Shown: piece by piece, positions 7,487 to 23,510 of the stretch | Layout: each line of letters begins with the position of its first letter | Numbering within the stretch: position 1 is the stretch's first letter | Assembly: GCA_965263235.1 (NCBI GenBank) | Contig: OZ253667.1 | Location: 1,026,189 to 1,090,188 of the forward strand | Length of the DNA: 64,000 nucleotides | Direction: 5' to 3' | From: Pseudomonadales bacterium | GTDB taxonomy: Bacteria; Pseudomonadota; Gammaproteobacteria; Pseudomonadales; UBA7434 | The notes under the pieces: model-generated | Told to the model about the DNA's origin: nothing | Databases searched by the model: none | Seen by the model: the letters and a program-made list of their open reading frames with translations, nothing else | Made by a program: the position numbers and the translations under genes

Positions 7487-7510
7487 ATCTGGATTTTTTC
7501 AAAAAAAGTG

Positions 7511-7538
7511 TTGACACAGCCTGTAGACTGGTTAACAT
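7511..7538 (+). promoter_or_regulatory. Sigma70-like promoter candidate
   Basis: TTGACA (7511-7516), a 16-nt spacer, then TAACAT (7533-7538). No protein-coding ORF lies downstream. Confidence 0.4.
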
Positions 7539-7661
7539 TGTTCCCAAGTTTTAGTCGGTGTTGGCTCAATCACATTGTTAGGCGAGTTGATTGGCAACGC
7601 TTCCTAGTTTGAAGGCGTAGACGGCTTTTTGCTGGCGCGCTTGACGGTTTTAAACGCCAGT

Positions 7662-7810
7662 CGAGCCTTGCTGGGCTTCTCCAGGGGCCAAGGGGCAGCA
7701 GGGCTCGGCAGGCGATAAATTTTGATTTGATAGTAGTGGTTTTAACGTCAGCTGGACCCGTTGGGCTTCTCCAGGGGCCAAGGGGCAACGGGTTCCGGCA
7801 GACGATAAAA
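7662..7810 (+). ncRNA. Candidate structured RNA: two tandem hairpins with an identical 22-nt loop and covarying stems
   Basis: Hairpin 1 has stem cgagccttgctg / cagcagggctcg (7662-7707). Hairpin 2 has stem ggacccgttg / caacgggttcc (7754-7796). Both enclose GGCTTCTCCAGGGGCCAAGGGG and are followed by GGCAG(G/A)CGATAAA. The strand is uncertain. Confidence 0.35.
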
Positions 7811-7991
7811 AGGCAGGGATAAAGAATAATAAATGGAGTCTTGCTGGGTTTTAGCAGGCAGTTCAAATTTGTTGTTGCTGGTGCTGGTGTCACCACTGAA
7901 TTCATACCAGGCACTTTGATGCTCGAGGTTTTGTCATCAAGGTCAAGGGTATCGAGGTGGAGTTCGGTTTGAGTGGCGCCAGCAACAGTAT

Positions 7992-8018
7992 AAATAAGCT
8001 ATTAGCTTTTATTTTTTT
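7992..8018 (+). terminator. Weak intrinsic terminator candidate
   Basis: AAGCT-ATT-AGCTT is a short stem followed by TTTATTTTTTT. The stem is AT-rich and only 5 bp. Confidence 0.3.
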
Positions 8019-8460
8019 CGATTGCGTTTTTGCTTGGCTTGATTGGTGATGGCGTGCTCCGTTTTGAGTTTGTCACGACGTTTCCGCAACCAGCGGTTAA
8101 ATGACAGGATTAGGCGGTTTTGAGAGTAATGTAGTTATGTGGCAATGCGTTGCGGCGATGCGATTCCAGGGCTATTGTCTGGTCGCTATACGTTCAATTG
8201 TGCAAGAGTGATCGCACAAAAAAAGTACAAAAATGCTTGCTATATCCAAATGCGTTGTGTAGCATGTGATCCAGTCGCTAGACCTTACAGGATTTAGCGA
8301 TGACTTTTACAAGTTTAAAAAAGTAAAAACGCTGTAAAAAGCATTGTGAATCAAAGGTTTAGTAAAGCTTTAGGTTGACAAAAAGGTATTTTATTATAAC
8401 GGCTTGACTGACAGACTGTTGCTCAGCAAGAGGAGAACAATAAAGGCTGTACCTATTTAT

Positions 8461-8544
8461 CGATGTGAATCGACAATGCTTTCTTCGATGTGAATCGATG
8501 CTCAGGAAGAGGCTAATTATAATAATCGGTGTGAATCGACAATC
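8461..8544. repeat. Three direct copies of CG(A/G)TGTGAATCGA upstream of the first CTERM-protein gene
   Basis: cgatgtgaatcgacaat is at 8461, cgatgtgaatcgatgct at 8486 and cggtgtgaatcgacaat at 8527. Copies 1 and 3 share extended flanks. Confidence 0.6.
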
Positions 8545-8750
8545 AACAATTGGCTATTTAGCGGTACGGTCAAGTACAAAGCAATTCTTCACGGGGCAGA
8601 ATAAAATTGCTGCTGAGTGTGTTAGCTTGAGTTAAATAAAGACGTAACAATTAAGCGTCATACTTATTCCTCAGGTTAGTACTTGCAAGCGACTAGTTCG
8701 TTTGTCTTCTTAAAAAAGTAAAGTTTTTAAGCAAAATCGGAGTTTTAACG

Positions 8751-9467
8751 ATGAAAAAACAATTAAGCATTTTGGCGGGTTCAGTTCTGCTAGCTTCAGG
8801 TGCTCACGCAGCTACCGTTGGTGTTGGCGGAAATGCCGTAGCGGTTTTTGATACTGCTGGCGTAGGTACCTACATCATTGATACTGGTGTTACTGCCGAC
8901 GCTCTTGCAGCTGGTAATGGCTTCCAAATCGATGTGTCTGCAGCTTTAGCTGCACTTGGGTCAATTGATTCTTACGCAGTTCTAGGACTTACCACTCCTA
9001 CTGCAACAGGTTTATACAACTACGATTCAGGTTCTTACGTAGATGTTGGCGCTGGTGTTGTTTACGCTTCATCTACCGGTGGCGGTCCCGCAGTTAGTCA
9101 AAACAACACTGTTCTACAGACCGGTGGTGTAGCAACATACTTGAATAACGCTAATTTCGGCCTTAACGTAGATGGTTCTGGTGGAGATGCAAGTGGTTCT
9201 GCTGCAATACTCACTGGCTTTGGTGGCCTGTTGAACGCTGCCGGTGCATTATCCGGTCTGTTCGTACAGGATTCTGACTTTACGGGTTTAACTTCGTCGC
9301 CTGATGCGGTTACGATTCTGACTCCAACAGGCGCTATTGAAGGTGTTTATTTAGACGGTACAACTTTCAGTGCAACTGCTGTTGGTTCAACCGTGGTACC
9401 TGTGCCCGCTGCAGCCTGGCTATTTGGCTCGGCGCTTGTTGGTCTGGGCGTAGTTCGTCGCAGGTAG
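8751..9467 (+). CDS. Exported protein with a VPLPA/PEP-CTERM-like C-terminal sorting signal (paralog of 21108-21962)
   Basis: The signal peptide is MKKQLSILAGSVLLASGAHA/AT. The C-terminus VPVPAAAWLFGSALVGLGVVRRR has the motif, a hydrophobic helix and a basic tail. Confidence 0.8.
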   Translation: MKKQLSILAGSVLLASGAHAATVGVGGNAVAVFDTAGVGTYIIDTGVTADALAAGNGFQIDVSAALAALGSIDSYAVLGLTTPTATGLYNYDSGSYVDVGAGVVYASSTGGGPAVSQNNTVLQTGGVATYLNNANFGLNVDGSGGDASGSAAILTGFGGLLNAAGALSGLFVQDSDFTGLTSSPDAVTILTPTGAIEGVYLDGTTFSATAVGSTVVPVPAAAWLFGSALVGLGVVRRR

Positions 9468-9671
9468 TAAACTGCGAACTATCGTATGCTTTGTGGCTTA
9501 CTTGGTGAATATCTTTTTGTGTTGTTCATCCAGCTGTCACAAAGCTGCGGTAAAAAAGCAAAATAAAAGGGAGTTTCTGGTTGGACTGTCGTAGGTCTTC
9601 CAGTCAGGACTCCCATATTGATAGGGTCGTATAATTGGCTCTGAGAAATATTAAATTATGAGGTTATTACA

Positions 9672-10457
9672 ATGAAAATGACTAAACTCGCTGCAGCAAT
9701 GGCTGCAACCGTAGTTTCAGCAGCTCACGCTCTGGACTTCTCAACTGTTGACACTAATCCAAGCGGTACTGCTATCAATGTTGGTGCTTGCGCTATCGTT
9801 GCCGCGACTGATATTGCTGACGGCTTGCGTACTATTCAGGGCGGCGACGCAGCTTGTGCGGGTAGTACTGATGCGGCATGTGCGCCTTCATTATCTAGTG
9901 CTGAGCTCCGTGCTTTAGCTACTGGCGCTGTTAATAACGCGACAAACATCTTGGGTGACGGTGGAAACCTTGACGATGCGACAGGCATCAAAAAAGGTGC
10001 ATTGGTATTCAACATTGCTGATGGATGTGACAATGCTGTAAGAGCTTTCGCGGGTTCTTCAGCTGGTATTGGTGGCCTTTCTTGTGGTCAGGGTCCTGCG
10101 ACTTTAGCAACTGCCGGTAACGACGCTGCAGTTCTTGGTACACTTACCAACGGTCAATCTAACCACAGAATGGGTATTATCTCTTCTACTTCTTTGGCTG
10201 ATACCCACGCGTTTATCAAGCTTGATGGCGTAGCTCCAAGCGTTGAGGCAGTTGCTTCTTCAAACTACAATCTGGTTTCTAACCTGGCTGCGGCTGCAAG
10301 CGTTGCTGACAATACAACTAATGGCATTACTGTAGGTATCGTGGCTGCTGATTCTGGGAACGGTGTTGCTTATCACCAGGTGGCCGGTAACGCGGTAGGT
10401 TGTGCACCTCTCGCGCCTGGCGGTGCACTTACTGATGCAAACGGCGGCGCGCTTTAA
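9672..10457 (+). CDS. Exported Ala/Gly-rich, Cys-containing hypothetical protein
   Basis: The signal peptide is MKMTKLAAAMAATVVSAAHA/LD. The ORF is 261 aa, has no C-terminal anchor and is followed by a strong terminator. Confidence 0.7.
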   Translation: MKMTKLAAAMAATVVSAAHALDFSTVDTNPSGTAINVGACAIVAATDIADGLRTIQGGDAACAGSTDAACAPSLSSAELRALATGAVNNATNILGDGGNLDDATGIKKGALVFNIADGCDNAVRAFAGSSAGIGGLSCGQGPATLATAGNDAAVLGTLTNGQSNHRMGIISSTSLADTHAFIKLDGVAPSVEAVASSNYNLVSNLAAAASVADNTTNGITVGIVAADSGNGVAYHQVAGNAVGCAPLAPGGALTDANGGAL

Positions 10458-10534
10458 TAGAGCTAGCTATTCTCAATAGCAACGCCGATTTGAGCGATCT
10501 TTATAGACCTTTGTCCTAAAGAGTACGCTTGATT

Positions 10535-10570
10535 AAAAATACCCGCTCCGAAAGGTGCGGGTATTTTTGT
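10535..10570 (+). terminator. Rho-independent terminator
   Basis: aaaaATACCCGCtccgaaaggtGCGGGTATttttgt is a GC-rich stem followed by a T-run. Confidence 0.8.
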
Positions 10571-11178
10571 TGTGGGGAAGGCTTGCTCATATCTACACCC
10601 TGAGTTTGATAGATGCGAATATTGTTTGCTCCGCTATGGAGTGACCTGCTTTAAATAGCAGCACAGCCTTTATCGCTCTTAATAGCGTGTTACCTGAGTG
10701 TGTTTTGCGAGAGTTCGCGGGGTTTGAAGCTGATATCCTTATGGTGGTGATTTACGACGGTGATAAGGGAATGCCACAACCTTTTATTCCTGCGGGGCTG
10801 ATTTTGCTGAAAGTTAAAAGCACTATCAATAGAACCAGACTCGTGGGCGGTAAAAATATTTTGTGTCAGCTAGACACACTTCTATGGCTGTCGAAATTTT
10901 AGCATATCGGTTAGTTAAAAACGGCATTGATTGGCGAGTATAAACGGATCTTGGTTATACCCCTATGTTGCAGTAAAAGTAATAAACTAGGGTTTCCAGT
11001 TCAATCTTTTCCAACTTTGATAGGTAAATCAAAGTCTGTATTCATCTAGTCTCTACATTGGCGGCTATTTGCTAAAATCTGGTCTCGCCTGCCATAATTT
11101 TTGGTGGAAAAAATTAATAGTAATCAAATTTGAGTCTGAATCAGTTGAAATATTAGCACTCAGGTATTTAGTGGAAGT

Positions 11179-12366
11179 ATGAAAATTCGAACCCGCAATA
11201 CAGCGGTTGCGGCAGTTATTGAAAAGCTACATGAGAAAGTTTGCTATGAGGGCGGGGCTTATTTTGATGAGGCTCTTGAACTTGGTGTGAAAGGCTCAGA
11301 GCTCTCCTACAGTTTAGCTAGGAAAGTCCAGAATCAGCACCTGATGGTTTCCTTGCCTGTTTCTGTTATGCCTCAAATCGATCACTACAAATTTAGGCTA
11401 TCAAAAGATGGCTCTCTGAACGTTGATTCGATTGACTCTGATGCAACACCACTGCAGTCAGAAATAATGATGCTATCGCTTGAGCTGTTCAACTTGTTGG
11501 GCAAGGTTAGTCAGTTTGGTAAGGACTCCCCTCCAGTGCAGTTGAGTCAATTTCCCGAGTTACTAAATCTTCTGCTTACAGGAGGTAATGGCGCGGATTT
11601 GGCACAGCCGGCTGTCGAGGGGGACGAATCTCTGCGCATTGCGGCTTTCTGGCAGGCCCGGATGTTTTATGAGTTGAATTCTGAAGCGAATCGCAGCTTA
11701 CCTTTGTTAGAGTTTATGAATCACCATCTATTCGCCAATAACTTTAAGTATGACTTTAGGGGGGGTGGTAATCACATCCAATTGCACCATAAAAACCTTA
11801 TTGCAGGGCAAACATTTGCGCGCTATGAAATTATGGACGCGCTGCAGACTTTTGTGGTTTACGGCTTCGTGGATCAGAGTGCTTATTTTCTGCATTCGCA
11901 GAGTTTTGAGATGCCGTTAACGGATGGTCTTACACTTCAGGTTTCTTCACAGGCTGTTTGTAGTCATCAGAGTGATGTGCCTGATTGGAATCCCCCTCCA
12001 AAATTCCAAAACAGTTTCATGTATCGTTCTAAGCTACTGTATGGCTCATCGGGGCCCGTTATGCCCTATGCTATAGTTCCGCCGGGAAATCACATAGAGC
12101 CGTTTAAAGAAGCCACATTGGCCCAATTGGAAGAAATTGAGAGGCATTACGGGCTTGAAAAAGGCGCTATTAATAATGAAGAAGTTTATGATAGGTTTTT
12201 GAGGACCTTATATAGCGAAAACCTGGCATTCTACAAAAAATTGTTGGCAGAGCTGCGAACCATTGATTTCAAGTTGGTTGAGAAAAACTCCATGGTACCA
12301 AGCCAGTTTAAAGTTTTGATGGATAAACAGAGAGGTATATTAAGGGGGTTTGCAAAGTGCTTCTAG
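11179..12366 (+). CDS. Hypothetical protein with a SET-domain-like core (Rubisco-LSMT/SETD-like pattern)
   Basis: LPLLEFMNHHLFANN resembles the NHxxxPN-like block. IAGQTFARYEIMDALQTFVVYGFVDQ follows the pattern GEx(I/F)xxYGxxSNxxLLxxYGFV. There is no signal peptide. Confidence 0.5.
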   Translation: MKIRTRNTAVAAVIEKLHEKVCYEGGAYFDEALELGVKGSELSYSLARKVQNQHLMVSLPVSVMPQIDHYKFRLSKDGSLNVDSIDSDATPLQSEIMMLSLELFNLLGKVSQFGKDSPPVQLSQFPELLNLLLTGGNGADLAQPAVEGDESLRIAAFWQARMFYELNSEANRSLPLLEFMNHHLFANNFKYDFRGGGNHIQLHHKNLIAGQTFARYEIMDALQTFVVYGFVDQSAYFLHSQSFEMPLTDGLTLQVSSQAVCSHQSDVPDWNPPPKFQNSFMYRSKLLYGSSGPVMPYAIVPPGNHIEPFKEATLAQLEEIERHYGLEKGAINNEEVYDRFLRTLYSENLAFYKKLLAELRTIDFKLVEKNSMVPSQFKVLMDKQRGILRGFAKCF

Positions 12367-12412
12367 CCTTTAGTACGTAGCTTCAAAAAAAGGATTCTCT
12401 AAACGATGGGTA

Positions 12413-12997
12413 TTAGTCAAAGGCATGGCTTTTAAACTTGATACCTCCTTTTCGAAGTGAGACGGTATCCTCAAATGTCTGAGTATGGATATAACCCGAT
12501 CGATCGAAGAGCCAGGTACCGTCCATTAGTTTCATATAAGAGCGCAAATGCGCACGTTCAACGGTGTTACCTAGAACCGGAGACCATGCGTCATATGTCC
12601 CTATGCAGTCTATATAAAGTGAATTTCTGCTTAAGACTTTCAATTCGAAAGATTCACAGTCCATACCTTTCATAATATAGTGATTGGCAGAGTAGACAAG
12701 GCGATACCAGCCCCTCTGAGTATATAGTTTTTCAGCGCTAGCCTTAGTGTAAAATGTGCTTAGGTCGTTTGTATTCTCTATTTTTTTAGCTAGTTTCGCG
12801 AAGTGTATAAATTGCTTTGCTGCAGGGTGTTTTCTGGTTGCCTTGTTCATTGCCGTATTTGACCAGTGGTCTGCATTAAAGGTGGCGCATCCGCTAAAAA
12901 TAAAAGCGAAACATAATGATGCAGTTAGCCGAATAAGCGTTCCACTATTATAGTTCGTAAGGGGTCGTGTGTGTGTTTTGAGGTAAAGTTTCTGCAT
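12413..12997 (-). CDS. Putative lipoprotein
   Basis: The N-terminal hydrophobic stretch ends in the lipobox-like FIFSGC. The ORF is 194 aa. Confidence 0.55.
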   Translation of the reverse strand: MQKLYLKTHTRPLTNYNSGTLIRLTASLCFAFIFSGCATFNADHWSNTAMNKATRKHPAAKQFIHFAKLAKKIENTNDLSTFYTKASAEKLYTQRGWYRLVYSANHYIMKGMDCESFELKVLSRNSLYIDCIGTYDAWSPVLGNTVERAHLRSYMKLMDGTWLFDRSGYIHTQTFEDTVSLRKGGIKFKSHAFD

Positions 12998-13216
12998 GGC
13001 CTGGTTCGTGAGTAAAACCTGATTTGTCGTCTATTGAGATGATTGAATTGGCAAGCGAGCAACATACTAGTAAAGAAAGTATATTTCAAGACGGTGGGCT
13101 TGCTGTATACATATTGCGTTGTAAAACAATCTATGCCCTCTTATGTTGCGTTGAGTGTAGCGTCGATGAAGAAGGGCATGAACTAAACGAGTTGTCTAAT
13201 ATTTTGAGTTTATTGC

Positions 13217-14875
13217 ATGTCTCTGGTGAATAAAAAGCTCATAGCTACGGCTAGTCCAAAAAATGCTGAAAAGGCAAGAAAGCGGCTGGATGGTACAAGA
13301 ATTACAATCAGCCTTTTTGCGAAACCGGCGCAGGAAATGACCTGCGCAGAAGCAATTACCTATGCTAATTCACTTTTGGCAGAAGGTGATCCGCATTCAG
13401 CATTGTCGATAGCAGACCAGCTGCTGGAAATTCAGGATCAGATAATCGATATTTACCTATTAAAGGTAAGGGCTTTGCTGGATCTTGAAGCGCTGTATGA
13501 ACTGGACTCTCTTATTGAAGAGTTGCTAGATGTGGCTCCGGACAATATTGGAGTGTTAGTTAACGCATCGCGCTTCTATCTGTTGTTGGGGCGTGTCAAA
13601 GAAGCGTTTTCCGCACTAAAGAAAATCAATGAAATCAGTCCAAATCGAATAGAAACCTTTTCGCAGATGGCGTTGTGCTACAGGTACTCGGGAGCTGGTG
13701 ACAAAGCTATCAAGTTGCTTGAGCGAAGCATCGGCCAGGTTTGGAAGAGAAGGTTTAGTGACGAAGAGCGTAATGCTCAATATCGATCAGTTTTATTTCG
13801 TTATGCTGGATATAAGCACGTTGAAGGAGAGATGCGGCAGGATCTGGAGAACTTCGCGGGTTCTGGTGATGACAGGATTGCTGCTTCGGCTGCCTATGCG
13901 TTGGCTCAGCAAAGCCTGTTTGAGAAAAACATTCAAGATGAACAGCGATATCTTGTAATGGCTAATTTGTCTGAGAATAAATACACAACCCGTGGAGTTG
14001 AGCTCAAACACTATCTTAATGAGTATGAGCGTGTTCGAAAGCTGCATGCTTCTCTCTTTGCTTCTTCACAACCCGAATGGCTTGAGTCTGAGTTTGATAG
14101 TGATTTTAGCCCAATTTATATCTTGGGTTTGCCAAGGAGTGGAACGACTTTAATGGAGCAGATATTGGGAGCTAGCTCAAAAATAGGACAAACGGGAGAG
14201 TCAAAGGGGTTTTCACTCGCTGTCGAAAAAGCTTTTCTAACGCATCAGCCAGCTTTTGTAGGTAGCCCACATCCGGAAGACATCAACCGTCTGCCTATGT
14301 CTGCTTTTCATGAGATCGCACGTTACTATGAGCGACACCAAAGTGTCATGACGAAGAAGTATATGTATATTGATAAGGAGCTGTATAACTTCAACTATGT
14401 TGGGTTGATGGCGGTGCTTTTTCCAAAGGCAAAGTTTATTCACATGAATCGAGCTCCAATGGATATATTCCTGAGTTGCTTTAAAAATAGCATCCCTGGT
14501 GTGCATGCGACTTCTGACCTGGTGCATATGGCTGAATACTATGTTCACATGAAAAAGCTCATAGGGCACTGGAAGACTGTTTTTGAAGATCGTATATTTA
14601 TAATGAACTACCGTGACTTGGTAGAAAGACCCGAAGATAGTACTCAGCAAGTGGTTGATTATTTAGGTATTGGTCTTGAGAACGATATGCTTAAGTTTCA
14701 TGAGCGAAAAAACGTTGTTCGAACGCTTAGTGTGGATCAAGTGCGCCAAAAAATATATACATCTTCTATCGAAAAGTGGCGTAAGTATGAGGTTATGTTG
14801 GCGCCCGCGAGAGCTAGGCTAGAGGAGTTGGGTGTTCCCATAGAAGGGGTTTCGTACATTAACAAAGACAGTTAA
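13217..14875 (+). CDS. TPR-repeat protein fused to a TPST-like (Sulfotransfer_3-type) sulfotransferase
   Basis: The N-terminal ~280 aa has TPR-like helical repeats. The PAPS 5'-phosphosulfate loop is YILGLPRSGTTLMEQILG. The C-terminal block is RTLSVDQVRQKIYTSSIEKWRKY. Confidence 0.85.
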   Translation: MSLVNKKLIATASPKNAEKARKRLDGTRITISLFAKPAQEMTCAEAITYANSLLAEGDPHSALSIADQLLEIQDQIIDIYLLKVRALLDLEALYELDSLIEELLDVAPDNIGVLVNASRFYLLLGRVKEAFSALKKINEISPNRIETFSQMALCYRYSGAGDKAIKLLERSIGQVWKRRFSDEERNAQYRSVLFRYAGYKHVEGEMRQDLENFAGSGDDRIAASAAYALAQQSLFEKNIQDEQRYLVMANLSENKYTTRGVELKHYLNEYERVRKLHASLFASSQPEWLESEFDSDFSPIYILGLPRSGTTLMEQILGASSKIGQTGESKGFSLAVEKAFLTHQPAFVGSPHPEDINRLPMSAFHEIARYYERHQSVMTKKYMYIDKELYNFNYVGLMAVLFPKAKFIHMNRAPMDIFLSCFKNSIPGVHATSDLVHMAEYYVHMKKLIGHWKTVFEDRIFIMNYRDLVERPEDSTQQVVDYLGIGLENDMLKFHERKNVVRTLSVDQVRQKIYTSSIEKWRKYEVMLAPARARLEELGVPIEGVSYINKDS

Positions 14876-14900
14876 GCGGCAAGTTGATTCGGTTTTTTAT

Positions 14901-16400
14901 ATGAGTAGTTCTGGTAACAAGTATGAGCGGGTCGAAGAAGCTATAAATACAGGTAAATATCGACTTGCGCTTAGGATGCTTGTTGCTGTTACAGAAGATG
15001 CGCCCCCAAAAAAGCTCGATCAAACAGGATTGTTATATCGCATTACGATCTATAATCGGCTGCAGTGGCTGCCAGAGGGAATGGAGTTGTTGGAGCACTG
15101 TATCGCGAAAGCAGGCAGTAGCTGTGAATTAAATCTTGAGATAGCGTTATTCTTCATGCTTTTAGGGCGATCATGTGATGCCGAACGCTTCTTTCGATTA
15201 GCTTTAGATGCTGATCCCACTAGCGCACTTATTATTACTGAGTTAGCAATACTTTATGAGCAGCGTGGCGATTCGGATCAGGCATTAAAAATATATAATA
15301 GAGTTTTTTCACGTGGAATTAGGCGTGGACGCGCGGATGCAGTGTTTGCAAGGGCTCTGGCTCGCTTGACTGGGTTGCGTGAGCTAACGGGTGATGAAGA
15401 GAAAGCAGTTCTAAAGTTTATAAAATCGGGGAAAGGAACGTCGCTCGAAACACACTTGTACTTTTCGATGGCAAAACACTATGGCCGTAAGAATAACTTA
15501 GACAAGCAGCTGCAATTTTTGAAGATCGCAAATGACCTTGCTTATGCTGAAGACCGCGCGGGGCCGGGAGAGTATTCGGCTAGCCTGGCCAAGGAGCAGC
15601 TTTTGGCTCTAAAGCGAATGTTCAAGCAGCCGAGACCAGATTGGATGCCTGTAATTAACGCTGGCCAGAATCAGTATCTCTTTGTGCTCGGTATGCCGCG
15701 TAGTGGTACAACATTGATTGAGCAGATACTTGGAGCGCATTCAAGGGTCGGCAATACGGGAGAATCCCGAGCGTTACAGATAGCCTTGTCGAGGTTCTCG
15801 CCAGCTAAGCATGAAGGGAGGGTGGTAAACAGCAAGCTTTTCGAGCATTTCAGGCTGATGAGTGGCAGAGACTTTAATGAGGCCGTAAAATATTACCAAC
15901 AGTATCAACGCTTGCTCTCTGCATCAGAGATTGTCACCGACAAGGAATTGAATTGCGTTAACAGGGTGGGGCTTTTGGCTAATATGTTTCCTAGAGCAAA
16001 GTTTATCGTTATAAAGAGACATCCCCTTGATGTAGCGGCCAGCCTTTTACAGCACTATTTTAAAAATGCGACCTACTCTACTAGGGGGCTTAATTGTGTG
16101 CTTGAGCATGAACACTATTATGCGAAGGTGGATTTTTGGAAGGAGCTCTATTCGGAGAAATTTATAGAGGTCAATTATGAGTCGCTTGTTTCTAAGCCTG
16201 AGGAAAGTATAAGAGCGATGTTGGAAAAAATTGATTTGGATTGGGAGCCGGGGTTGTTAAGGTTTAATGAGAGGACAAACTCGGTGAGGACACCTAGCCT
16301 GAGCCAAGTCCGCTTAGGGTTGAACACAGCGGCAGTAAACAAGTGGAAAAATTTTTCCGAAATGCTTGGCCCGGCTATTGAATATTTAGGTATCAAATAA
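14901..16400 (+). CDS. TPR-repeat protein fused to a TPST-like sulfotransferase (paralog of 13217-14875)
   Basis: It has FVLGMPRSGTTLIEQILG and RTPSLSQVRLGLNTAAVNKWKNF. The architecture matches the upstream gene. Confidence 0.85.
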   Translation: MSSSGNKYERVEEAINTGKYRLALRMLVAVTEDAPPKKLDQTGLLYRITIYNRLQWLPEGMELLEHCIAKAGSSCELNLEIALFFMLLGRSCDAERFFRLALDADPTSALIITELAILYEQRGDSDQALKIYNRVFSRGIRRGRADAVFARALARLTGLRELTGDEEKAVLKFIKSGKGTSLETHLYFSMAKHYGRKNNLDKQLQFLKIANDLAYAEDRAGPGEYSASLAKEQLLALKRMFKQPRPDWMPVINAGQNQYLFVLGMPRSGTTLIEQILGAHSRVGNTGESRALQIALSRFSPAKHEGRVVNSKLFEHFRLMSGRDFNEAVKYYQQYQRLLSASEIVTDKELNCVNRVGLLANMFPRAKFIVIKRHPLDVAASLLQHYFKNATYSTRGLNCVLEHEHYYAKVDFWKELYSEKFIEVNYESLVSKPEESIRAMLEKIDLDWEPGLLRFNERTNSVRTPSLSQVRLGLNTAAVNKWKNFSEMLGPAIEYLGIK

Positions 16401-16402
16401 TT

Positions 16403-17959
16403 ATGTGGTTCCCAGCAAGAATTAAGGAAGTAGATAGTGTTGACATCAATCCAGCACTAGATTTTCTAGCGACCTTGTCTGCAGAAGACTGGGCTGGTGG
16501 AGAGGCACTTAAACAAAAATTGGCGGGTAGCAGACCAACTCAGTCGATATTTCTTTATTCGCTTACCAGGGAGGAGCTTTTTGACACTTTATCGAAGCGG
16601 CCGTTGAGGCAAGAGGATGTGCCCAGGCTTGCGGGTTTTAATAATTATTACCCGAGCTTAGCTTATTTGTTTGATAAGGTGAGGGAACATTATTCAAAGG
16701 ATGGGGTTTTCGTCAGAGCGCAGTTGGCTAAGATGGGGCCTGGCGCCAAGATTGATCCACACCGTGATTCTTTTTTTATACTAGAGAACAGCCACCGCAT
16801 TCATATTCCTCTAGTTACAACAGAGAAGCTTCAGTTTGTCGTCGACGATGAGCTAGTAAGGATGGATGCAGGGAAAATGTATGAGCTCAATAATCAGGTT
16901 ATGCATTGGGTTAATAATCCAAAGGACTCAATCGATAGAATACACTTGATTATTGATTACTTGCCTCCTGAGTATAATGTTCCGCAATCGCTTGCAGCGG
17001 ACTTTAAATTCTACATAAAGAAGCACAGAGCGGGTCGCCCTGTGCGACTACCGATAAAAGATGTTAGTTACCCAGAGTTGTTGGTGTCTGTATCTTGTGG
17101 AGCAATTAACAGATTATATTTATTTGACCTTGATAAAGAGAGTCTGCGGCCGGCTCAGTTGCAGCCGGGTAAAAATAGTACTGAAGTGTTAGATGTTGGG
17201 AAAATACTTTCTCTTAAATGCGTGGACAAAGAATTCGCTGCGCTGCAAAAAGATCAGCTAGTGGTTTTTGATAAGGATCTTAAAATCAAGGGTGTGTATA
17301 AAAACTCTCATTTAAAAGGCGCTTGCTCAATGTTTGTAGACGGGAGGTTTTCTTATGTGGCCTGTTCAGGCTGTGATGGGGTTTTAAGGTTTAATTTTCG
17401 CAAGAAGGTTTTCGATAAAGGGTGGCGACTAACCGTTAATGAAGAGAATGGAGCAGTGTGTATTACGGAGTTTTGCCCAAGCGATACGGATACAAAAAAT
17501 CTGTGTAACCAGTATGGTGTTAACGCGGGGTGGATGGATCGGGACAAATTGGTGGTTGGTTGTGCTAAGTTCGATAAACTTATCCACTATCAGGATGGAA
17601 AGGCTAGAGCGGTGGAACAGCTGCATCTAGGAGCAGAAAATGCACAGCCTTATAACAAAGGTATTCTGTATAGCAGTGCAGATCACCAGCACGTGGTCTA
17701 TTCAGCGAACTATGATTACAGGCAGGTTGATCTGGAGTCCGTGCCAGGGTTAATGATCGCGGCAGAACGTGTAGGTTTGTCTCTTGCCGGGAAGCAAGGT
17801 AGCTGTTTGCTGAGGCATCTAAAAGGCACAACATTGTTTGCAGTTGGTTCGAAAATCTTAGTGCTCGATATGAAAAACCAAGCTGTTGTTAGAGTTTTTG
17901 ATGTTCCTTTGGAGCGCTCATCGAGTATTTCAAGTATGATGGTTTGGTCTGCTCGCTAG
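16403..17959 (+). CDS. Aspartyl/asparaginyl beta-hydroxylase-like domain fused to a ~300-aa unknown C-terminal domain
   Basis: PGAKIDPHRDSF..SHRIHIPLVT..AGKMYELNNQVMHWVNNP..RIHLIIDY fits the HxD...H 2OG-oxygenase pattern of the Asp_Arg_Hydrox family. The start codon is 2 nt after the upstream stop. Confidence 0.8.
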   Translation: MWFPARIKEVDSVDINPALDFLATLSAEDWAGGEALKQKLAGSRPTQSIFLYSLTREELFDTLSKRPLRQEDVPRLAGFNNYYPSLAYLFDKVREHYSKDGVFVRAQLAKMGPGAKIDPHRDSFFILENSHRIHIPLVTTEKLQFVVDDELVRMDAGKMYELNNQVMHWVNNPKDSIDRIHLIIDYLPPEYNVPQSLAADFKFYIKKHRAGRPVRLPIKDVSYPELLVSVSCGAINRLYLFDLDKESLRPAQLQPGKNSTEVLDVGKILSLKCVDKEFAALQKDQLVVFDKDLKIKGVYKNSHLKGACSMFVDGRFSYVACSGCDGVLRFNFRKKVFDKGWRLTVNEENGAVCITEFCPSDTDTKNLCNQYGVNAGWMDRDKLVVGCAKFDKLIHYQDGKARAVEQLHLGAENAQPYNKGILYSSADHQHVVYSANYDYRQVDLESVPGLMIAAERVGLSLAGKQGSCLLRHLKGTTLFAVGSKILVLDMKNQAVVRVFDVPLERSSSISSMMVWSAR

Positions 17960-18025
17960 CTTTTCTGCTGCATAGTGATATTGTGTTTTAGCCGCGGCTA
18001 GTAAATTGGGAGAACAGAGTTTGCC

Positions 18026-18583
18026 ATGAAAGTATTCGGTATAGGTTTCCATAAAACAGGCACAACAAGTTTGGCTCAGGCGCTGCGATCGCTGGGGTAT
18101 TCTGTTACCGGCCCTAACGGTGTTAACGATCCAAATATAGCAAACAATGCATTAGCCATAGCTAACAAGTTGGTTTGGGAATACGACGCCTTTCAAGATA
18201 ATCCCTGGCCGATTCTTTATAAAGAAATGTACCAGCAGTTTCCTGATGCCTATTTTATCGCGACATTTAGAGATCCAGAAAAGTGGATTAATAGTCTTTT
18301 GAGGCACTTCGGCTCTAATAGTACACCTATGCGAAGCTGGATCTATGGTGTGGGTTGCCCAAAGGGAAACGAAGGTATCTATTTGGAGAGATACAAGCGT
18401 CATTATTTAGAGCTTGATAAGTTCTTTAAGGAAAAACAGAAAAGTATATTAAAGATGAACCTTGAGAAAGGGCATGGTTGGGAGAGGCTCTGTACTTATC
18501 TCGGTGTTGAGATACCAGATAAACCCTTTCCACATGCTAATAAGGCGAGTGCAAGAGAGCGTCGTCAACCACATCAGCGCTGA
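18026..18583 (+). CDS. Small sulfotransferase family protein
   Basis: MKVFGIGFHKTGTTSLAQAL is an N-terminal P-loop-like PAPS motif. The ORF is 185 aa. Confidence 0.7.
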   Translation: MKVFGIGFHKTGTTSLAQALRSLGYSVTGPNGVNDPNIANNALAIANKLVWEYDAFQDNPWPILYKEMYQQFPDAYFIATFRDPEKWINSLLRHFGSNSTPMRSWIYGVGCPKGNEGIYLERYKRHYLELDKFFKEKQKSILKMNLEKGHGWERLCTYLGVEIPDKPFPHANKASARERRQPHQR

Positions 18584-18611
18584 TTTGCTTTAGAGTCCCT
18601 GATTGAACAAA

Positions 18612-19415
18612 ATGGCCAAAAAAAAAATTGATCTCATTATCACAGGTATGCCCCGTAGCGGAACTAGTTTCTTATGTTCTAGAGTTAATGAGATGGAGAA
18701 TGCCGTTGTAGTTAATGAGCCGCAAGAGGTGTTTGGTGAGCTGAGAAGAGAAGGAATTGATGGTGTTTCTCGCTTGTTTGCAAGTTATAGGGAACGAATT
18801 ACCACAGGTGTGGCAGTTCCAAATAAAATCAAAGACGGAAAATTTATAGAGGATACGTCGTACGAAGATAGTCGTTCAATGCATGTTCATAAGGTTGATG
18901 ATCACGAGTTTCTATTGGGCATAAAAAATACGCTAGTGTTTATGTCGATTTTAAATCAACTGGTACGTAATAAAGCTGTCGACTATATTATGGCTAGTGT
19001 CAGGCATCCTTTGGATTGTATTGCTTCGTGGCATAAGGTGTCATTCCCGCATTTGAATTCGGCCAAGCCAGAGTTTCTTTCTGATTTTGCAGTGGGTAAG
19101 TTTTCAACCAGGCTTAATAGATTGTTGTCTGAGGATGATCTTTATGTTCGATCAGCAATGCTATGGCAACTTTTAGCTCAAACGTTGCTGGCCGAAAAAA
19201 GTAAAATCCATTTGGTTCGCTATGAGGATATAGTTAGAAGGCCTAATGATGCTTGCAAACATATTAGTAGATATCTTGGTCTGAATGAGCGGGCTCAAGA
19301 CCGCTCTGCTTCTAAGCCTATTCGTAGGCGATCATTATTACCGGGGGATAAGCAAGAGTTGATATATGCCATTTGTAAGAAAGAAGCAGTTCAGCTTGGT
19401 TACAAAAACGGTTAG
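18612..19415 (+). CDS. Sulfotransferase family protein
   Basis: It has the motif IITGMPRSGTSFLCS. The ATG at 18612 is preferred over the TTG at 18603. Confidence 0.7.
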   Translation: MAKKKIDLIITGMPRSGTSFLCSRVNEMENAVVVNEPQEVFGELRREGIDGVSRLFASYRERITTGVAVPNKIKDGKFIEDTSYEDSRSMHVHKVDDHEFLLGIKNTLVFMSILNQLVRNKAVDYIMASVRHPLDCIASWHKVSFPHLNSAKPEFLSDFAVGKFSTRLNRLLSEDDLYVRSAMLWQLLAQTLLAEKSKIHLVRYEDIVRRPNDACKHISRYLGLNERAQDRSASKPIRRRSLLPGDKQELIYAICKKEAVQLGYKNG

Positions 19416-19496
19416 TTAATGTTATTACATAATTATTATGTGGGATAAACTCCGTTCTTTTTTGAGTTGTATTTATTAGTATAAATAGTGCTTAAA

Positions 19497-20039
19497 ATGA
19501 TTATTCAGAAGAATTTTTTGGCCGACAATAAACGTATAGCGTTGAGAGATCATGCAATGCGTTTATATAAAAATGGATTGATGGAAAATAATTACACCCA
19601 GTATCGTTATATTTTGCCGATCTACAATACACCTCATGCGAATGCTATAGTCAAAAGCGTTGAAGCGCCTATCCGGGGTAGGCTGAGAGCGTTTGATGTT
19701 CAACCTGATCCTTTACTTGGTTGGGTTATTTCGCTTATCAAACCTGGGGGAAGAATCCATATGCATCGCGATAATTGCGATCATTATTCAGAGTCAGGTA
19801 GACAGCATTTAAGATGCAACGTAGTTGTTTCTAAAAACCCGGACTCTGGTAATCCAATAGTAGAGGATCAAACCTATGTTTTAAGGGAGGGGGATTTATG
19901 GGCTTTTTTTGCTCACAGCAACGTGCATGGCTGTGAAGTTGTAGACGGTAAAAAGCCCCGAATTATTTATCAATTCGGCTATTCGGTAGCGGTTGATAAA
20001 CTCGAAGATCTTAGTGCCTGTTTTGCTGCTGATTCTTAG
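19497..20039 (+). CDS. 2OG-Fe(II) oxygenase / Asp-beta-hydroxylase-like cupin
   Basis: KPGGRIHMHRDNCDH...LRCNVVV...SNVHGCE is an HxD...H arrangement. The start is uncertain (GTG 19488 or ATG 19497). Confidence 0.6.
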   Translation: MIIQKNFLADNKRIALRDHAMRLYKNGLMENNYTQYRYILPIYNTPHANAIVKSVEAPIRGRLRAFDVQPDPLLGWVISLIKPGGRIHMHRDNCDHYSESGRQHLRCNVVVSKNPDSGNPIVEDQTYVLREGDLWAFFAHSNVHGCEVVDGKKPRIIYQFGYSVAVDKLEDLSACFAADS

Positions 20040-20122
20040 CGGATGTGTTCTTGTCAGTTTATTTTATTTATAAGAGCAAATACTAATTCACAAGTCTTAT
20101 TAGCAGGAAGTTGAGTTTGATA

Positions 20123-20881
20123 ATGAGCGCCCACAAAAATTTAGTCGTCTTGATCTGTCTAGGTGATAAAAATCACAATGTAGACCTGACATTATTATCG
20201 CTGCAGTCTATTCGAAGGGTATCAGGCTTCGACGGTGACGTACTGCTTTTTACAGATTTCGACCGTGACATAGAAAGTTTGAATAAGCTGCAAGTCAAAA
20301 GAGTGGTGGTGCCTGCTGGGGCCATTGAAGATCCAAGAAATTTTAGAATATATATGCATCAGTATTACGACTTTGCGCAGCACGAAACAATACTTTATAT
20401 GGACTTTGATATATTGGTGCTAAAGGGGTTGGCACCGGTGTTTAGAAAGATAGAAAGTAACCATGTATACTTCTGTTACGCTCCTAAGCAGCCTTGGGAC
20501 AACTACGATGCATTTGGTGCAAATGAATACATCGCAAAATATATGAAATCCCCGATAGTAAGTGCTTCTCCCACTGGTATATGCTCTGGTGTTTTTGGAA
20601 TAAAGTCTAGAAAGTTAAAAAGTATGTTAAAGAGTTGGGAGAAAGTTTTAGCGAAAACCCCTTCCAATAATGATCAACACGCTTTTAATAGCCTTTTGGT
20701 TAAGCAGGGATATCCTTGCCGACCACTTCCTAATGAGTGGTTTGAGTACCCTATGCAAAAACCAGACGCTAGAGAGCTGCGTTCGCGGGATCATTTTATT
20801 TTCTATCACTACAACCCTGTTCCCAATCATATGAAGCTTGCCCGTATGTCAGAAGATTTTATCTTGGCCAGTGCTCATTGA
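20123..20881 (+). CDS. Nucleotide-diphospho-sugar (GT8-like) glycosyltransferase
   Basis: ILYMDFDILVLKGLAPVF is a DxD-type block like the GT8 motif YLDaDiivl. The ATG at 20123 sits behind an AGGAAG Shine-Dalgarno-like site. Confidence 0.55.
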   Translation: MSAHKNLVVLICLGDKNHNVDLTLLSLQSIRRVSGFDGDVLLFTDFDRDIESLNKLQVKRVVVPAGAIEDPRNFRIYMHQYYDFAQHETILYMDFDILVLKGLAPVFRKIESNHVYFCYAPKQPWDNYDAFGANEYIAKYMKSPIVSASPTGICSGVFGIKSRKLKSMLKSWEKVLAKTPSNNDQHAFNSLLVKQGYPCRPLPNEWFEYPMQKPDARELRSRDHFIFYHYNPVPNHMKLARMSEDFILASAH

Positions 20882-21107
20882 GCGGGTCGGGCTATTATGA
20901 AAACGGATTTGAGCGTATCGGCTGCATAGCGAGTATAGAAAATTAACCAATAATAATGCCCGCCTTTGATAGGGGCATCGGGGAAAAGAGAGTTTGGCCT
21001 ATTCGGCCAGAGCAATGCTAATTACAAATATTTTCGTACTTATTCATAGCACTATTAGCCCTTTTTGTTTGTGTCTTTTTTGGGTGGGTTTTTAAGTGTC
21101 AATCTAT

Positions 21108-21962
21108 TTACTGATTCTCAGTTGTGATGTGAGAACTTCCCTTTCGTTTGATCATGATTAGGCTAGAGCACGCGGATAAGAACAACCAAGCAGCACCGGG
21201 TATTGGTATTACGGCTGCGCCTTGAAAGCCTTGCACAGTTAATATGTTGTTGCTCAAAGATATGTGATGGTTGTATGAAGCAGTTACAAACACTAAGCAC
21301 TCGTCTACGCTCTCGTAAAAAGTTGCACCCTCACCTTCTGTGCACCACAACTCATCAACGACCGAAGGTGTAAACACGGTTTGTTCATTCTGCGCTGTGC
21401 TTACGCCAGTCGTTTGGTATTGATGAAAGTGCCTGGTATTTGGTCGTGATCCCAGTAGGTCACTAAAGCTGTTCAGGAATCCATTTCCAAGGCCAAAAAC
21501 AATCGGCGCTCTGTTATCCAGGTCTCCAAAGGTTCCTTCTCCATTCCAGCCAAAAGATGCATTTGCAATAGTGGCAGCGGTATTAAAGGTTGCAAACTGT
21601 AGCTGGCTGTTAGTCCTCAATGGTTCAGGAACGGTCTGTGCGTAAACAAGTCCTGCACCAGGGTCGACATATGCGTATTCGTCATAATTATATACTGTGG
21701 TAGCGTATGGCGTTGTGCGTCCAAGTATCATGAATGATTCAATCGATCCACCCAATGCTGAAAACGCAGCACTAATGTCCAGGCTGAAGCCAGTCCCCGT
21801 TACGAAATCATCAGCGCTTACACCAGTGTCATAAAGAAAAGATCCCATACCGAAGGTGTTGAAACCTACGACCATATTATCACCAGGCTGGAAAGGGATA
21901 GCTTGTGTATTTGAAGCTAACAGTATTGAGCTTGCTAGAGTGGTAAATGTTTTTTTAAGCAT
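21108..21962 (-). CDS. Exported protein with a VPLPA/PEP-CTERM-like C-terminal sorting signal (paralog of 8751-9467)
   Basis: The signal peptide is MLKKTFTTLASSILLASNTQA/IP. The C-terminus is VIPIPGAAWLFLSACSSLIMIKRKG. The N-terminal two thirds align by eye with 8751-9467. The start was set at the second ATG, which lies behind a GGAG. Confidence 0.8.
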   Translation of the reverse strand: MLKKTFTTLASSILLASNTQAIPFQPGDNMVVGFNTFGMGSFLYDTGVSADDFVTGTGFSLDISAAFSALGGSIESFMILGRTTPYATTVYNYDEYAYVDPGAGLVYAQTVPEPLRTNSQLQFATFNTAATIANASFGWNGEGTFGDLDNRAPIVFGLGNGFLNSFSDLLGSRPNTRHFHQYQTTGVSTAQNEQTVFTPSVVDELWCTEGEGATFYESVDECLVFVTASYNHHISLSNNILTVQGFQGAAVIPIPGAAWLFLSACSSLIMIKRKGSSHITTENQ

Positions 21963-22060
21963 CCGATTTGCTCCAGCAAACATGTTTTGTGTTTAGTATT
22001 ATTTTTATCGCTCGGGCTTAACCGCCCACCGATACTCCATATTACTCGAAGTTTATTGCA

Positions 22061-22091
22061 AAAAAAAGCGACTTAGATAAGTCGCTTTTTA
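22061..22091 (-). terminator. Intrinsic terminator downstream of nrdB (A-run/T-run flanked, potentially bidirectional)
   Basis: aaaaaaAGCGACTTAgaTAAGTCGCTtttt is a perfect 9-bp inverted repeat. Confidence 0.8.
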
Positions 22092-22118
22092 GGGGTTGTT
22101 TTAAGCTTGTCGAAAGTA

Positions 22119-23510
22119 TCAATCCCAACTCAACGCGCCACCTGTTTGATACTCAATTACCCGTGTCTCAAAGAAGTTTTTCTCTTTGCGTAAGTCCATG
22201 ATTTCACTCATCCATGGGAAGGGATTTTGTGCACTTGGATATTGCTCGGGCAGGCCGAGTTGGGCGAGGCGACGGTTGGCGATAAAGTGTAGGTATTCTT
22301 CCATCATACTGGCGTTCATACCGAGTACTCCGCGCGGCATGGTGTCACGCGCGTATTCGATTTCGATTTCGGTGCCTTCCAGAATCATTTGAATCACTTC
22401 TTGCTGGAATTGTTCAGTCCATAGATGTGGGTTTTCCAGGCGAATCTGGTTGATTACATCGATACCAAAGTTCAGGTGCATGGACTCGTCACGCAGAATA
22501 TATTGGAACTGCTCGGCGACGCCGGTCATTTTATTTCGACGACCCATCGACAAAATTTGTGTAAATCCGCAGTAGAAGAAAATGCCTTCGGTGACGGCAT
22601 AAAAGCCCACAAGGTTGCGTAGTAATTCCTGGTCGGCTTCCGGGGTTCCTGTTCTAAAGCTTGGATCGCTGAGCGAGTGAGTATGGCTTAGCGACCATGC
22701 TGCCTTTTTCGCGATAGAAGGAATTTCGCGGTACATATTAAAGACTTCGCCTTCATCCATTCCTAACGATTCTATGCAGTACTGATAGGCATGTGTGTGA
22801 ATGGCTTCTTCAAAAGCCTGGCGAAGAATATACTGGCGGCATTCTGGGTTGGTGATAAGACGATAGATGGCCAGTACCAGGTTGTTGGCAACTAACGAGT
22901 CTGCTGTGGAGAAGTAGCCCAGTGAGCGCATAACGATTAAGCGCTCGTCTTCACTGAGAGCGCCTTCGCCTTCTTTTTTCCATAACGCGATATCCGCGTT
23001 CATATTGATCTCTTGCGGCATCCAGTGGTTGGCGCAGCCGTCGAGATATTTTTGCCAGGCCCAGTCGTATTTAAATGGAACCAGCTGGTTAAGATCAGCG
23101 CGACAGTTGATCATGCGTTTTTGATCAACTTCGATTCGCTGCGCGCCCATTTCCAGCTCTTCCAGGCCCGGGGCGATGTCGATGTTCGCGACCGCAGCGG
23201 CGGCGGCTGAAACATTACTCTCTGCGGAGGGCGGGGTATTAGCTTCCGGTGGTACTACATTGGTTTTTTCAACACTGGTCTCTGCGCTTAATGGAGCCCC
23301 TGTTTTTGGGGTAGGCGCTGCAGCTTGTTCGATCGCTTTTTCAGTGCCCAGATTTTCAAGTATTGCTGCAGGCTCTGATGTGCTTTCTGCCAACGTTTCG
23401 GCGGCAGCGGCAACCACCTCTGGCGCAGCTTTTTCAAGGTTCTGTGGTGCAGGGCTGCTTTTGTGAGGGGCTAACGCGGCTTCTTCGTTGTAATCATCCC
23501 AGCTTATCAT
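22119..23510 (-). CDS. nrdB: Ribonucleotide reductase class Ia beta subunit
   Basis: It has the MISWDDY.. N-terminal extension and the di-iron ligand regions ([15 protein letters not shown]). Confidence 0.95.

Follow-up and report, generated by a model that had tools for sequence, protein, structure and literature searches.

The window analysed here is a stretch of 64,000 nucleotides from a marine Pseudomonadales bacterium (GTDB lineage UBA7434; contig OZ253667.1 of assembly GCA_965263235.1, positions 1,026,189-1,090,188), and its region spanning 8751-21983 contains an island in which genes of exported proteins lie together with those of sulfotransferases, 2-oxoglutarate (2OG)-dependent oxygenases, a SET-like protein and a glycosyltransferase. 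An earlier note on this DNA, made from the letters alone, had proposed that the island is a dedicated maturation system for surface or secreted proteins. All 13 island open reading frames (ORFs) that it described are present at its coordinates in the ORF list of the window, and all are intact. The island opens on the + strand with parA (8751-9467), coding for an acidic exported protein (238 aa) that carries a signal peptide and ends in a VPLPA-CTERM-type tail, and sec261 (9672-10457), coding for an exported Ala/Gly-rich protein with four invariant Cys. These are followed by the gene of a SET protein named p395 (11179-12366, +) and by that of a putative lipoprotein of 194 aa on the - strand (12413-12997), in which a lipobox-like FSGC was read in the sequence. 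The enzyme genes between 13217 and 20881 form, as claimed, a tightly packed run on a single strand with intergenic gaps of 2-72 nt, and the island closes with parB (21108-21983, -; likely start codon at 21962), paralogous to parA and distinguished by insertions and a diverged tail. The GC content of the 12-22 kb region is 0.40-0.44, which is lower than that of the flanks (0.46-0.51), and no tandem repeats were found within 6000-22500 of the window. We favour the reading of this locus as a lineage-restricted island for the decoration of surface proteins.

The paralogy of the exported proteins parA and parB was confirmed by BLASTP (36% identity, E = 6e-48). Both C-termini read [VI]P[VI]P[AG]AAWLF followed by a hydrophobic helix and a basic tail, that of parB being VIPIPGAAWLF...KRKGSS..., and in the window the combination of P-x-P-x-x-x-W-L-F with helix and basic tail was found in these two ORFs only. 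The signal peptides were read by eye as MKKQLSILAGSVLLASGAHA ending before AT and MLKKTFTTLASSILLASNTQA ending before IP, and their n- and h-regions are conserved in the alignment of the parA family. The assignment of the tails to the VPLPA/PEP-CTERM class is backed at the level of the family, in which 30 of 31 members match the VPLPA-CTERM model TIGR03370 at E ≤ 0.01, and is less clear for the two window proteins. The parA tail with 24.8 bits falls just below the model cutoff of 25.35 bits, which is passed by four of the five individually scored relatives (P0019, 32.2; P0009, 31.7; P0010, 27.0; P0005, 26.0 bits), and parB matches no NCBIfam model, though a VPxPA-like motif is visible. Membership of the parA family in floc_PepA was ruled out (≤20 bits against a cutoff of 80). 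The family is rare, with about 40 clusters among 5.8 billion proteins, none of them bearing a name. In the 31-member alignment, the tail VPVPAAAWLFGSAL(L/V)GLGVVRRK shows essentially no variation, and conservation is also high in the signal peptide M(I)KKQLxxLAGS, the majority-residue frequency being 0.93 in the tail, 0.76 in the signal peptide and 0.46 in the mature domain. An AlphaFold2 (AF2) model of parA (pLDDT 86, pTM 0.77) gave no fold match in the PDB with Foldseek.

The mature domain of the window parA (8811-9395) contains no Lys, no Arg and no His, and 34 of its 195 residues are Gly; it is acidic and rich in Gly, Ala, Ser, Thr, Asn and Asp. The same bias was found across the 31 members of the family, with Lys absent from the mature domain in 24 of them, 0-3 Arg and 0-1 His, together with 3-10 Tyr, 7-17 Asp and 6-20 Asn. 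A conserved stretch of parA, YNY(D/S/T)E..Y(V)(D/E), has Tyr at position 96 in 28 of the members, at 91 in 23 and at 89 in 21, next to Asp or Glu. The peptide GLYNYDSGSYVDVGAG of parA and its counterpart in parB may be candidate acceptor peptides for the sulfotransferases described below. At a locus of a relative (L006, 1907-8093), at least four consecutive tailed exported proteins are encoded; one of them, of 591 aa, combines a parA-type N-terminal domain with Asp-rich acidic repeats, and its C-terminal anchor is a different one.

The sec261 gene always stands after parA, and its Cys-rich product is better conserved than parA (48-53% identity). No match for sec261 was found in Pfam, NCBIfam or PDB-profile searches, and a PstS-like "KLDGVAP" motif, an impression gained on reading, found no support and was dropped. 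Orthologs of the putative lipoprotein (34-39% identity) hold the same position in L001, L009, L088 and L089 with the opposite strand kept; the protein has no Pfam or NCBIfam family match, and Pfam detected no domain, EGF-like or other, in any of parA, parB, sec261 and the lipoprotein.

The presence of two fusions of tetratricopeptide repeats (TPR) with a sulfotransferase domain carrying a loop like that of tyrosylprotein sulfotransferases (TPSTs) was borne out for TPR-ST1 (13217-14875, +) and TPR-ST2 (14901-16400, +), which match Sulfotransfer_3 with E = 5e-31 and 2e-34, respectively, and are 28% identical to each other (E = 4e-59). TPR-ST1 has TPST2 as its best full-domain PDB match and contains LPRSGTTL, GESK and DKEL. 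For residues 254-499 of TPR-ST2, phmmer against the PDB returned human TPST1 (9wp1, 5wrj) and TPST2 (3ap1) as the best matches (E = 2.6e-8 to 1.7e-7), and the alignment spans the whole catalytic domain, including GMPRSGTTL, GEsR, DKEL (against NKDP) and SLSQVR (against SLSKVE). The active-site residues of TPST2 that align are Glu99, Arg101 and Lys158, with the numbering counted on the aligned sequence, and the Ser of the SLSxV motif. Both fusions are without an N-terminal hydrophobic segment, and their N-terminal 250-290 residues are TPR repeats, unlike the type II lumenal TPSTs. Two further sulfotransferases had been predicted in the same run, and both calls held: the small protein of 18026-18583 (+) belongs to Sulfotransfer_4 (E = 1.3e-33), with 63-66% identity to the L088 and L089 counterparts, and the protein of 18603-19415 (+) matches Sulfotransfer_1/3 (E = 1.7e-8) with 52-54% identity to the counterparts in the same contigs.

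The SET-like nature of p395 was established by a family profile and by structure. No Pfam family, SET included, was found at E ≤ 0.1 for p395 or its relatives, and the protein searched as a single sequence or small profile gave no match in Pfam and the PDB. An exhaustive search brought the family to 340 representatives, and a 67-sequence profile (alignment A4) matches SETD6 at E = 1.6e-4 over residues 209-277, which include the NH and catalytic-Tyr motifs. The A4 consensus is LMPxIDFxNHH ... ECFxxYxxxDALDxxLxYGFVD, with Y216 invariant and H182 nearly invariant. The AF2 model of p395 (pLDDT 95.4, pTM 0.92) was compared by Foldseek, and the top 33 matches were exclusively LSMT, SETD3 or SETD6, with E down to 5e-6 and probabilities of 0.98-1.00. 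Thus, from profile and structure together, the protein is confidently predicted to be a SET-domain protein methyltransferase of the LSMT/SETD3/SETD6 class, and it is without a signal peptide. Elsewhere in the family the SET-like domain is fused with TPR (P0086, P0091 and P0136) or with GT41/OGT (P0141); the contexts of the TPR-SET fusions gave no clear signal, one contig being too short and two others not decisive.

Two Asp/Asn-beta-hydroxylases had been proposed in the run, and one of them stands. AspH518 (16403-17959, +) consists of an AspH-type 2OG oxygenase (N-terminal 190 aa) and a C-terminal domain of about 330 aa; its residues 83-187 match Asp_Arg_Hydrox (PF05118) with E = 2.6e-12 and 47.3 bits against a cutoff of 22.6, and the PHRD...H motif is visible. 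The nearest solved relative is proline cis-4-hydroxylase (4p7w), and 19 homolog clusters were found in all. The C-terminal part (16973-17959) has no family match; in Candidatus Litorirhabdus singularis (L060), AspH518 corresponds to two genes, with the C-terminal domain encoded separately (10201-11124, -) beside the AspH-domain gene. In a distant AspH homolog, P0063, a weak sulfotransferase-like region (under the Pfam cutoff) is combined with an AspH domain and a SecA-type SEC-C motif, and this architecture fits what would be expected of enzymes acting on Sec preproteins. The N-terminal CxCG...CCG of P4H-type hydroxylases in a sister clade (L008, 4170-4898; L070, 12205-12900) resembles SEC-C by eye and is uncalled by Pfam.

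The second proposed hydroxylase (19488-20039, +) remains under the Pfam thresholds, with 17.8 bits against 22.6 for Asp_Arg_Hydrox and 16.6 against 27 for 2OG-FeII_Oxy_3; HxD...H is visible, and we describe it as a probable small 2OG/Fe(II) oxygenase. An ortholog of it was found neither in L088 nor in L089. The DxD glycosyltransferase that ends the run (20111-20881, +) had been called GT8-like, and this identity was rejected, the score for Glyco_transf_8 (PF01501) being 17.3 bits against a cutoff of 24.3. Nucleotid_trans (PF03407) passes instead (29.1 bits against 22), which makes the enzyme GT77-like, and it is 67-70% identical to the L088 and L089 counterparts.

The gene order was found to be kept in relatives as DinG helicase, an ORF-free gap of 2.4-4.8 kb, parA, sec261, SET protein, lipoprotein on the - strand, TPR-ST1, TPR-ST2 and AspH518. 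The whole order from DinG to AspH518 is present in L001/L005 and L009 with 31-51% protein identity, and the metagenome contigs L088 and L089 keep it from parA on and continue with the Sulfotransfer_4 protein, the second sulfotransferase and the PF03407 transferase at 52-70% identity. At least six divergent contigs share this order, and the DinG proteins of the genomes sharing it are only 47-51% identical. In addition, a contig of 19.5 kb carries a parA homolog (P0011) with one TPR-ST and an AspH518 homolog (P0056), and homologs of parA and of the SET protein appear to share three further contigs, as judged from the identical sizes of the longest contigs. The co-occurrence of a CTERM-tailed protein with TPR-ST and hydroxylase genes, which the earlier note had proposed as a check, was seen in divergent genomes, although it is not exclusive, the enzyme module being found also without the parA family, as described below.

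A sister clade (L008, L032 and L070) has the order CTERM protein, sec261-like protein and an exported protein on the - strand, followed by a P4H-type 2OG-FeII_Oxy_3 hydroxylase. Since the two clades carry different hydroxylases, the exported pair is linked twice, independently, to hydroxylases of different families. TPR-STs near unrelated CTERM proteins (L019 and L060, and L018 at a distance of about 10 kb) may reflect chance adjacency and were too few to be counted as evidence. In L009 (9998-18795; metagenome-assembled genome (MAG) AK_MB162) the orthologs of parA, TPR-ST1 and AspH518 are each split into two ORFs, by assembly errors or gene decay.

Upstream of parA lies an ORF-free gap (6299-8750), which is kept as a gap in all relatives; within it a hairpin of about 72 nt is repeated in tandem, and the 23 nt at its apex, GGCUUCUCCAGGGGCCAAGGGGC, are invariant. 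There are two copies in the window and up to six elsewhere. Copy 1 (7649-7720, +) has its exact core at 7674-7696 and a stem of about 22 bp, and copy 2 (7740-7810, +), with the exact core at 7764-7786, differs from it in the stem by compensatory changes. In the hairpin alignment (A3) there are 28 pairs, 14 of which show compensatory changes, and 97% of the cells are paired, compared with at most 46% when the partners were slid. Shuffled alignments reached the observed values in 0 of 500 cases on four of five measures and in 1 of 500 on the fifth. The frequent G-U pairs point to an RNA on the + strand. Rfam, at gathering and relaxed thresholds, returned two tRNAs only and nothing for the ORF-free gap or the hairpins. 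Hairpins were also found in L001, L004, L008, L009, L017, L032, L070 and L093-L106; the exact core is present in only 14 metagenome contigs, where it is co-oriented with dinG, the CTERM gene and sec261 wherever the flanks allow the check. The array always lies between dinG and a same-strand CTERM-tailed gene or adjoins the latter. On these grounds the hairpin array is a candidate for a new small RNA or leader element.

Furthermore, a non-coding block of 365 nt upstream of parA (8191-8545) is 72% identical to that of L001, whereas the proteins are only about 48% identical. Three copies of TGTGAATCGA (8463-8539, +; at 8463, 8488 and 8529) lie 222-288 nt 5' of the start codon at 8751; three copies are likewise found 5' of the L001 ortholog of parA, and in both genomes two of them are 25 nt apart. 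The TGTGAATCGA-bearing block is probably a regulatory site. A sigma-70-like promoter match was found at 7511-7538, and no sigma-54 -24/-12 motif such as that of pepA was found upstream of parA. The hairpins and the TGTGAATCGA repeats may regulate the genes of the exported proteins, and the structured RNA array may control the expression of the surface protein proposed below.

Beyond the island, the ribonucleotide reductase small subunit (22119-23510, -) has an Ala/Pro/Glu-rich N-terminal extension of about 140 aa, the Pfam domain beginning at residue 141. An integron integrase (38218-39270, -; TIGR02249, E = 4e-125) comes after a tRNA-Pro (38050-38126), and an IS3 transposase at 40742-41560 precedes a stretch of lower GC at about 42-50 kb. 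Near the start of the window a large serine recombinase (101-1849, +; CcrB/XisF-like, E = 6e-34) overlaps in its 3' end a predicted tRNA-Met (1753-1829, -).

Domain identities, folds, conserved synteny, composition bias and tail class are the observed features from which an interpretation can be built. The closest characterised relatives of each enzyme modify proteins, and the SET domain, the TPST-like catalytic domains and the TPR fusions together argue for a protein substrate. No signal peptide was read on any of the island enzymes, and the modification would thus take place in the cytoplasm before Sec export, unlike the lumenal pathway of eukaryotes. Scans of the island ORFs with Pfam and NCBIfam found no polysaccharide assembly or export genes. 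The reading that we favour, a cytoplasmic system that decorates co-encoded exported proteins before their export, has in our judgement an even chance of being correct. Here the proposal of a dedicated maturation system is retained as far as the identities of the enzymes and the conserved linkage of exported proteins and enzymes go; it gives way where the tail is concerned, which is not specific for the island, and where the SET enzyme is concerned, which cannot target the mature parA.

Which proteins and residues are modified, in which order and at which site, we infer as follows. The enzymes would meet the preproteins in the cytoplasm before Sec export, and the TPR domains would hold the unfolded chain. 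The oxygenases would hydroxylate Asp/Asn or other residues, and the TPST-like enzymes would sulfate Tyr in the acidic, base-free domain of parA, for example in its conserved YNY(D/S/T)E..Y(V)(D/E) stretch. Hydroxyl groups would receive sulfate or sugar from the small sulfotransferases and the GT77-like transferase, and the SET enzyme would methylate Lys or His on a partner, most plausibly sec261. After export, an exosortase-family enzyme encoded elsewhere, presumably XrtD, which we take to be the cognate one for VPLPA-CTERM, would remove the tail and place the protein in the envelope or matrix. The most elaborate form of this proposal is a multiply modified, eukaryote-style surface protein bearing sulfotyrosine, hydroxy-Asp/Asn and O-linked sugar or sulfate, with methyl-Lys/His on its partner, made under TPR guidance before export and sorted by an exosortase; we put it forward tentatively, as possible rather than probable.

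Several observations weigh against a decoration system for the island proteins, and they are given here together with the alternatives to which some of them lead. The exported proteins are no more than candidate substrates. The VPxPAAAWLF tail is a generic sorting tag shared well beyond this island: 411 confirmed VPxPA-type tails were found in species-representative genome contigs on many unrelated proteins, with many in a single MAG (for example CBDTVJ01), in marine Halieaceae, Porticoccaceae, Cellvibrionales, Chromatiaceae and others. Neither an exosortase nor genes for the synthesis of the sulfate donor 3'-phosphoadenosine-5'-phosphosulfate (PAPS) were found among the scanned ORFs of the window, and the sorting enzyme would have to be encoded elsewhere. 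Since the mature parA is without Lys and His, the SET enzyme cannot act on it and must act on something else. In addition, the polyketide sulfotransferase CurM (E = 2.5e-6) and NoeE (E = 1.4e-8) also score, more weakly than the TPSTs and over part of the sequence, so the similarity to TPSTs cannot tell Tyr from other acceptors.

What the enzyme block makes or decorates could instead be something other than a protein, for instance a sulfated, hydroxylated oligosaccharide, a glycolipid, a side chain of exopolysaccharide (EPS) or a small metabolite, with the CTERM proteins as neighbours because they work with extracellular polymers. We regard this as unlikely, though it has several observations behind it, and a polysaccharide or lipid role was the main alternative of the earlier note as well. 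The 19.5-kb contig adds Sulfotransfer_2, a GT47/RXYLT1_C (Exostosin) protein, a UDPGT-like (GT1-like) glycosyltransferase, Gly_transf_sug and a sulfatase to the homologous genes, and the island of L089 runs on into an AT3-SGNH O-acyltransferase. In L070 the hydroxylase is followed by an O-FucT-like protein (under threshold), a GDP-mannose dehydratase and a hexapeptide acyltransferase, and one TPR-SET fusion lies inside a Wzy/Wzz/GT2/GT4 cluster. The sulfotransferases show the weak NoeE matches, and the AspH family includes lipid hydroxylases, with a weak LpxO match for the island enzyme, as well as hydroxylases of free amino acids (4p7w). The floc protein PepA binds EPS to cells (PMC9850573). 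Since the islands of relatives add carbohydrate genes, the product may include a sulfated glycan. Against this alternative, the window island has no Wzx, Wzy, Wza, ABC exporter, priming glycosyltransferase or sugar-nucleotide genes, and no genes of polysaccharide assembly or export were seen in the scanned part of the rest of the window. Moreover, p395 is confidently assigned to the SET enzymes, which are known to us only as protein methyltransferases; the TPR-STs align best with TPSTs across the whole catalytic domain; and the recurrent fusion of TPR with sulfotransferase, SET, 2OG oxygenase and GT41 domains suggests the recognition of proteins or peptides. If the product were a sulfated glycan, its pathway would still be unusual in doing without Wzx/Wzy.

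A second alternative, to which we give a similarly low probability, is that the enzymes do modify proteins or peptides but find their targets elsewhere, among peptide metabolites linked to TonB receptors or among cytoplasmic or envelope proteins, and that the linkage with parA and sec261 reflects the genome layout of the lineage. More distant homologs of AspH518 stand beside TonB-dependent receptors without parA in L084 (a Colwelliaceae isolate), L086 and L087, in the company of TPR-sulfotransferases, a TPR-2OG oxygenase and methyltransferases, and in L060 a TonB-dependent receptor likewise adjoins the module, an unrelated protein with a CTERM tail being encoded close by. Proteins with the parA domain occur without a nearby enzyme block in L006 and L007, and the generic tail and the absence of Lys and His from mature parA also suit targets outside the island. 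Against this, gene order and close packing have been maintained between genomes with DinG proteins that have diverged to the extent given above, and the second clade keeps the exported pair beside a different hydroxylase. No conserved small precursor ORF was found: a 45-aa ORF called between sec261 and the SET gene in L001 was considered and rejected, as it has no conserved equivalent in the window and only 60 nt separate the two genes in L088. No TonB-dependent receptor, NRPS or peptide exporter was found in or beside the window island.

A chance juxtaposition or a decaying, horizontally acquired cluster without joint function, to which the lower GC at 12-22 kb and the several disrupted genes of L009 might point, is very improbable, as the ORFs of the window are intact and closely spaced, the order recurs in divergent contigs, and the L009 disruptions may be assembly errors of the MAG.

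The decoration of co-encoded exported proteins before export remains the reading that we favour. If its elaborate form were true, the island would be the first instance of a bacterial envelope protein that undergoes tyrosine sulfation and hydroxylation of the AspH type. The scope of bacterial tyrosine sulfation is at stake, and the locus bears on how exosortase cargo is decorated. It is a compact test bed, with all these enzyme classes and obvious candidate substrates joined in one island of 13 kb, and it would, if the reading holds, test the 2010 proposal of a bacterial origin for the eukaryotic toolkit of extracellular-matrix modification. The TPR-guided sulfotransferases could serve as tools for site-specific sulfation.

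The earlier note knew of no characterised bacterial system with such a composition, and a literature search found none. To our knowledge, RaxST-RaxX of Xanthomonas oryzae is the only characterised bacterial system of tyrosine sulfation, and in free-living bacteria the hydroxylation of protein Asp/Asn and methylation of the SET type have hardly been studied. RaxST resembles the proposed system in that a cytoplasmic sulfotransferase of the TPST-like family modifies a ribosomally made chain ahead of its export. For RaxX this chain is a short peptide, which leaves the cell through its own peptidase-containing ABC transporter; the island has neither such a transporter nor a conserved small ORF, and the molecules proposed as substrates are Sec preproteins with lengths of about 190-260 aa. 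Unlike RaxST, the island sulfotransferases have TPR domains, and hydroxylases, a SET enzyme and a glycosyltransferase are encoded alongside them. Decoration in the cytoplasm before export by TPR-fused or dedicated enzymes is also known from the flagellin glycosyltransferase FlmG and from HMW1C acting on HMW1. The likeness lies in a cytoplasmic enzyme with a substrate-binding repeat domain and a protein that is then exported, and the difference in the chemistry of the island (sulfation, hydroxylation and methylation), the export route and the cargo.

The best or only matches for the catalytic domains of the island are eukaryotic, namely metazoan TPST1/2 and ASPH, SETD3/SETD6/LSMT, and plant or protist GT77. 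In eukaryotes, TPST, ASPH and GT77 enzymes are anchored in membranes and face the lumen, unlike the bacterial ones, which have neither a signal peptide nor a membrane anchor; the sequence identity is low, and Pfam detected no EGF-like domain in the exported proteins of the island. With PEP-CTERM cargo the exported proteins share the signal peptide, a low-complexity domain rich in Asn, Ser, Thr and Gly, the sorting motif, the transmembrane helix and the basic tail, and there are many such proteins per genome in the relatives. PEP-CTERM proteins are generally encoded in EPS loci, and the island differs from the classical EPS/XrtA locus in having no PrsK, PrsR or PrsT and no exosortase nearby. 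Post-translational processing has been found for the floc protein PepA (PMC9850573). In the library searched, no paper was found that links sulfotransferases with PEP-CTERM or VPLPA-CTERM cargo.

The closest precedent for the combination as a whole is a set of operons with beta-hydroxylases and sulfotransferases predicted by Iyer et al (2010; PMC2938197), in a purely computational study, to act on secreted Gly-rich, collagen-like or tail-collar substrates that are hydroxylated and then sulfated; the same study links TonB-receptor neighbourhoods to peptide-derived metabolites. A phytanoyl-CoA-hydroxylase/methyltransferase fusion, a PAPS synthetase, collagen repeats or triplets and a tail-collar domain, which belong to those operons, were not found in the island. 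What the island has beyond them is a SET methyltransferase, TPST-like sulfotransferases fused to TPR, a GT77-like transferase and an exosortase-type tail. The two have in common an AspH-family hydroxylase, P-loop sulfotransferases and a secreted Gly-rich protein, as well as the same logic of hydroxylation followed by sulfation. Since operons joining hydroxylases and sulfotransferases were thus predicted in 2010, the island of the window is best regarded as a variant of them and not as a new kind of system.

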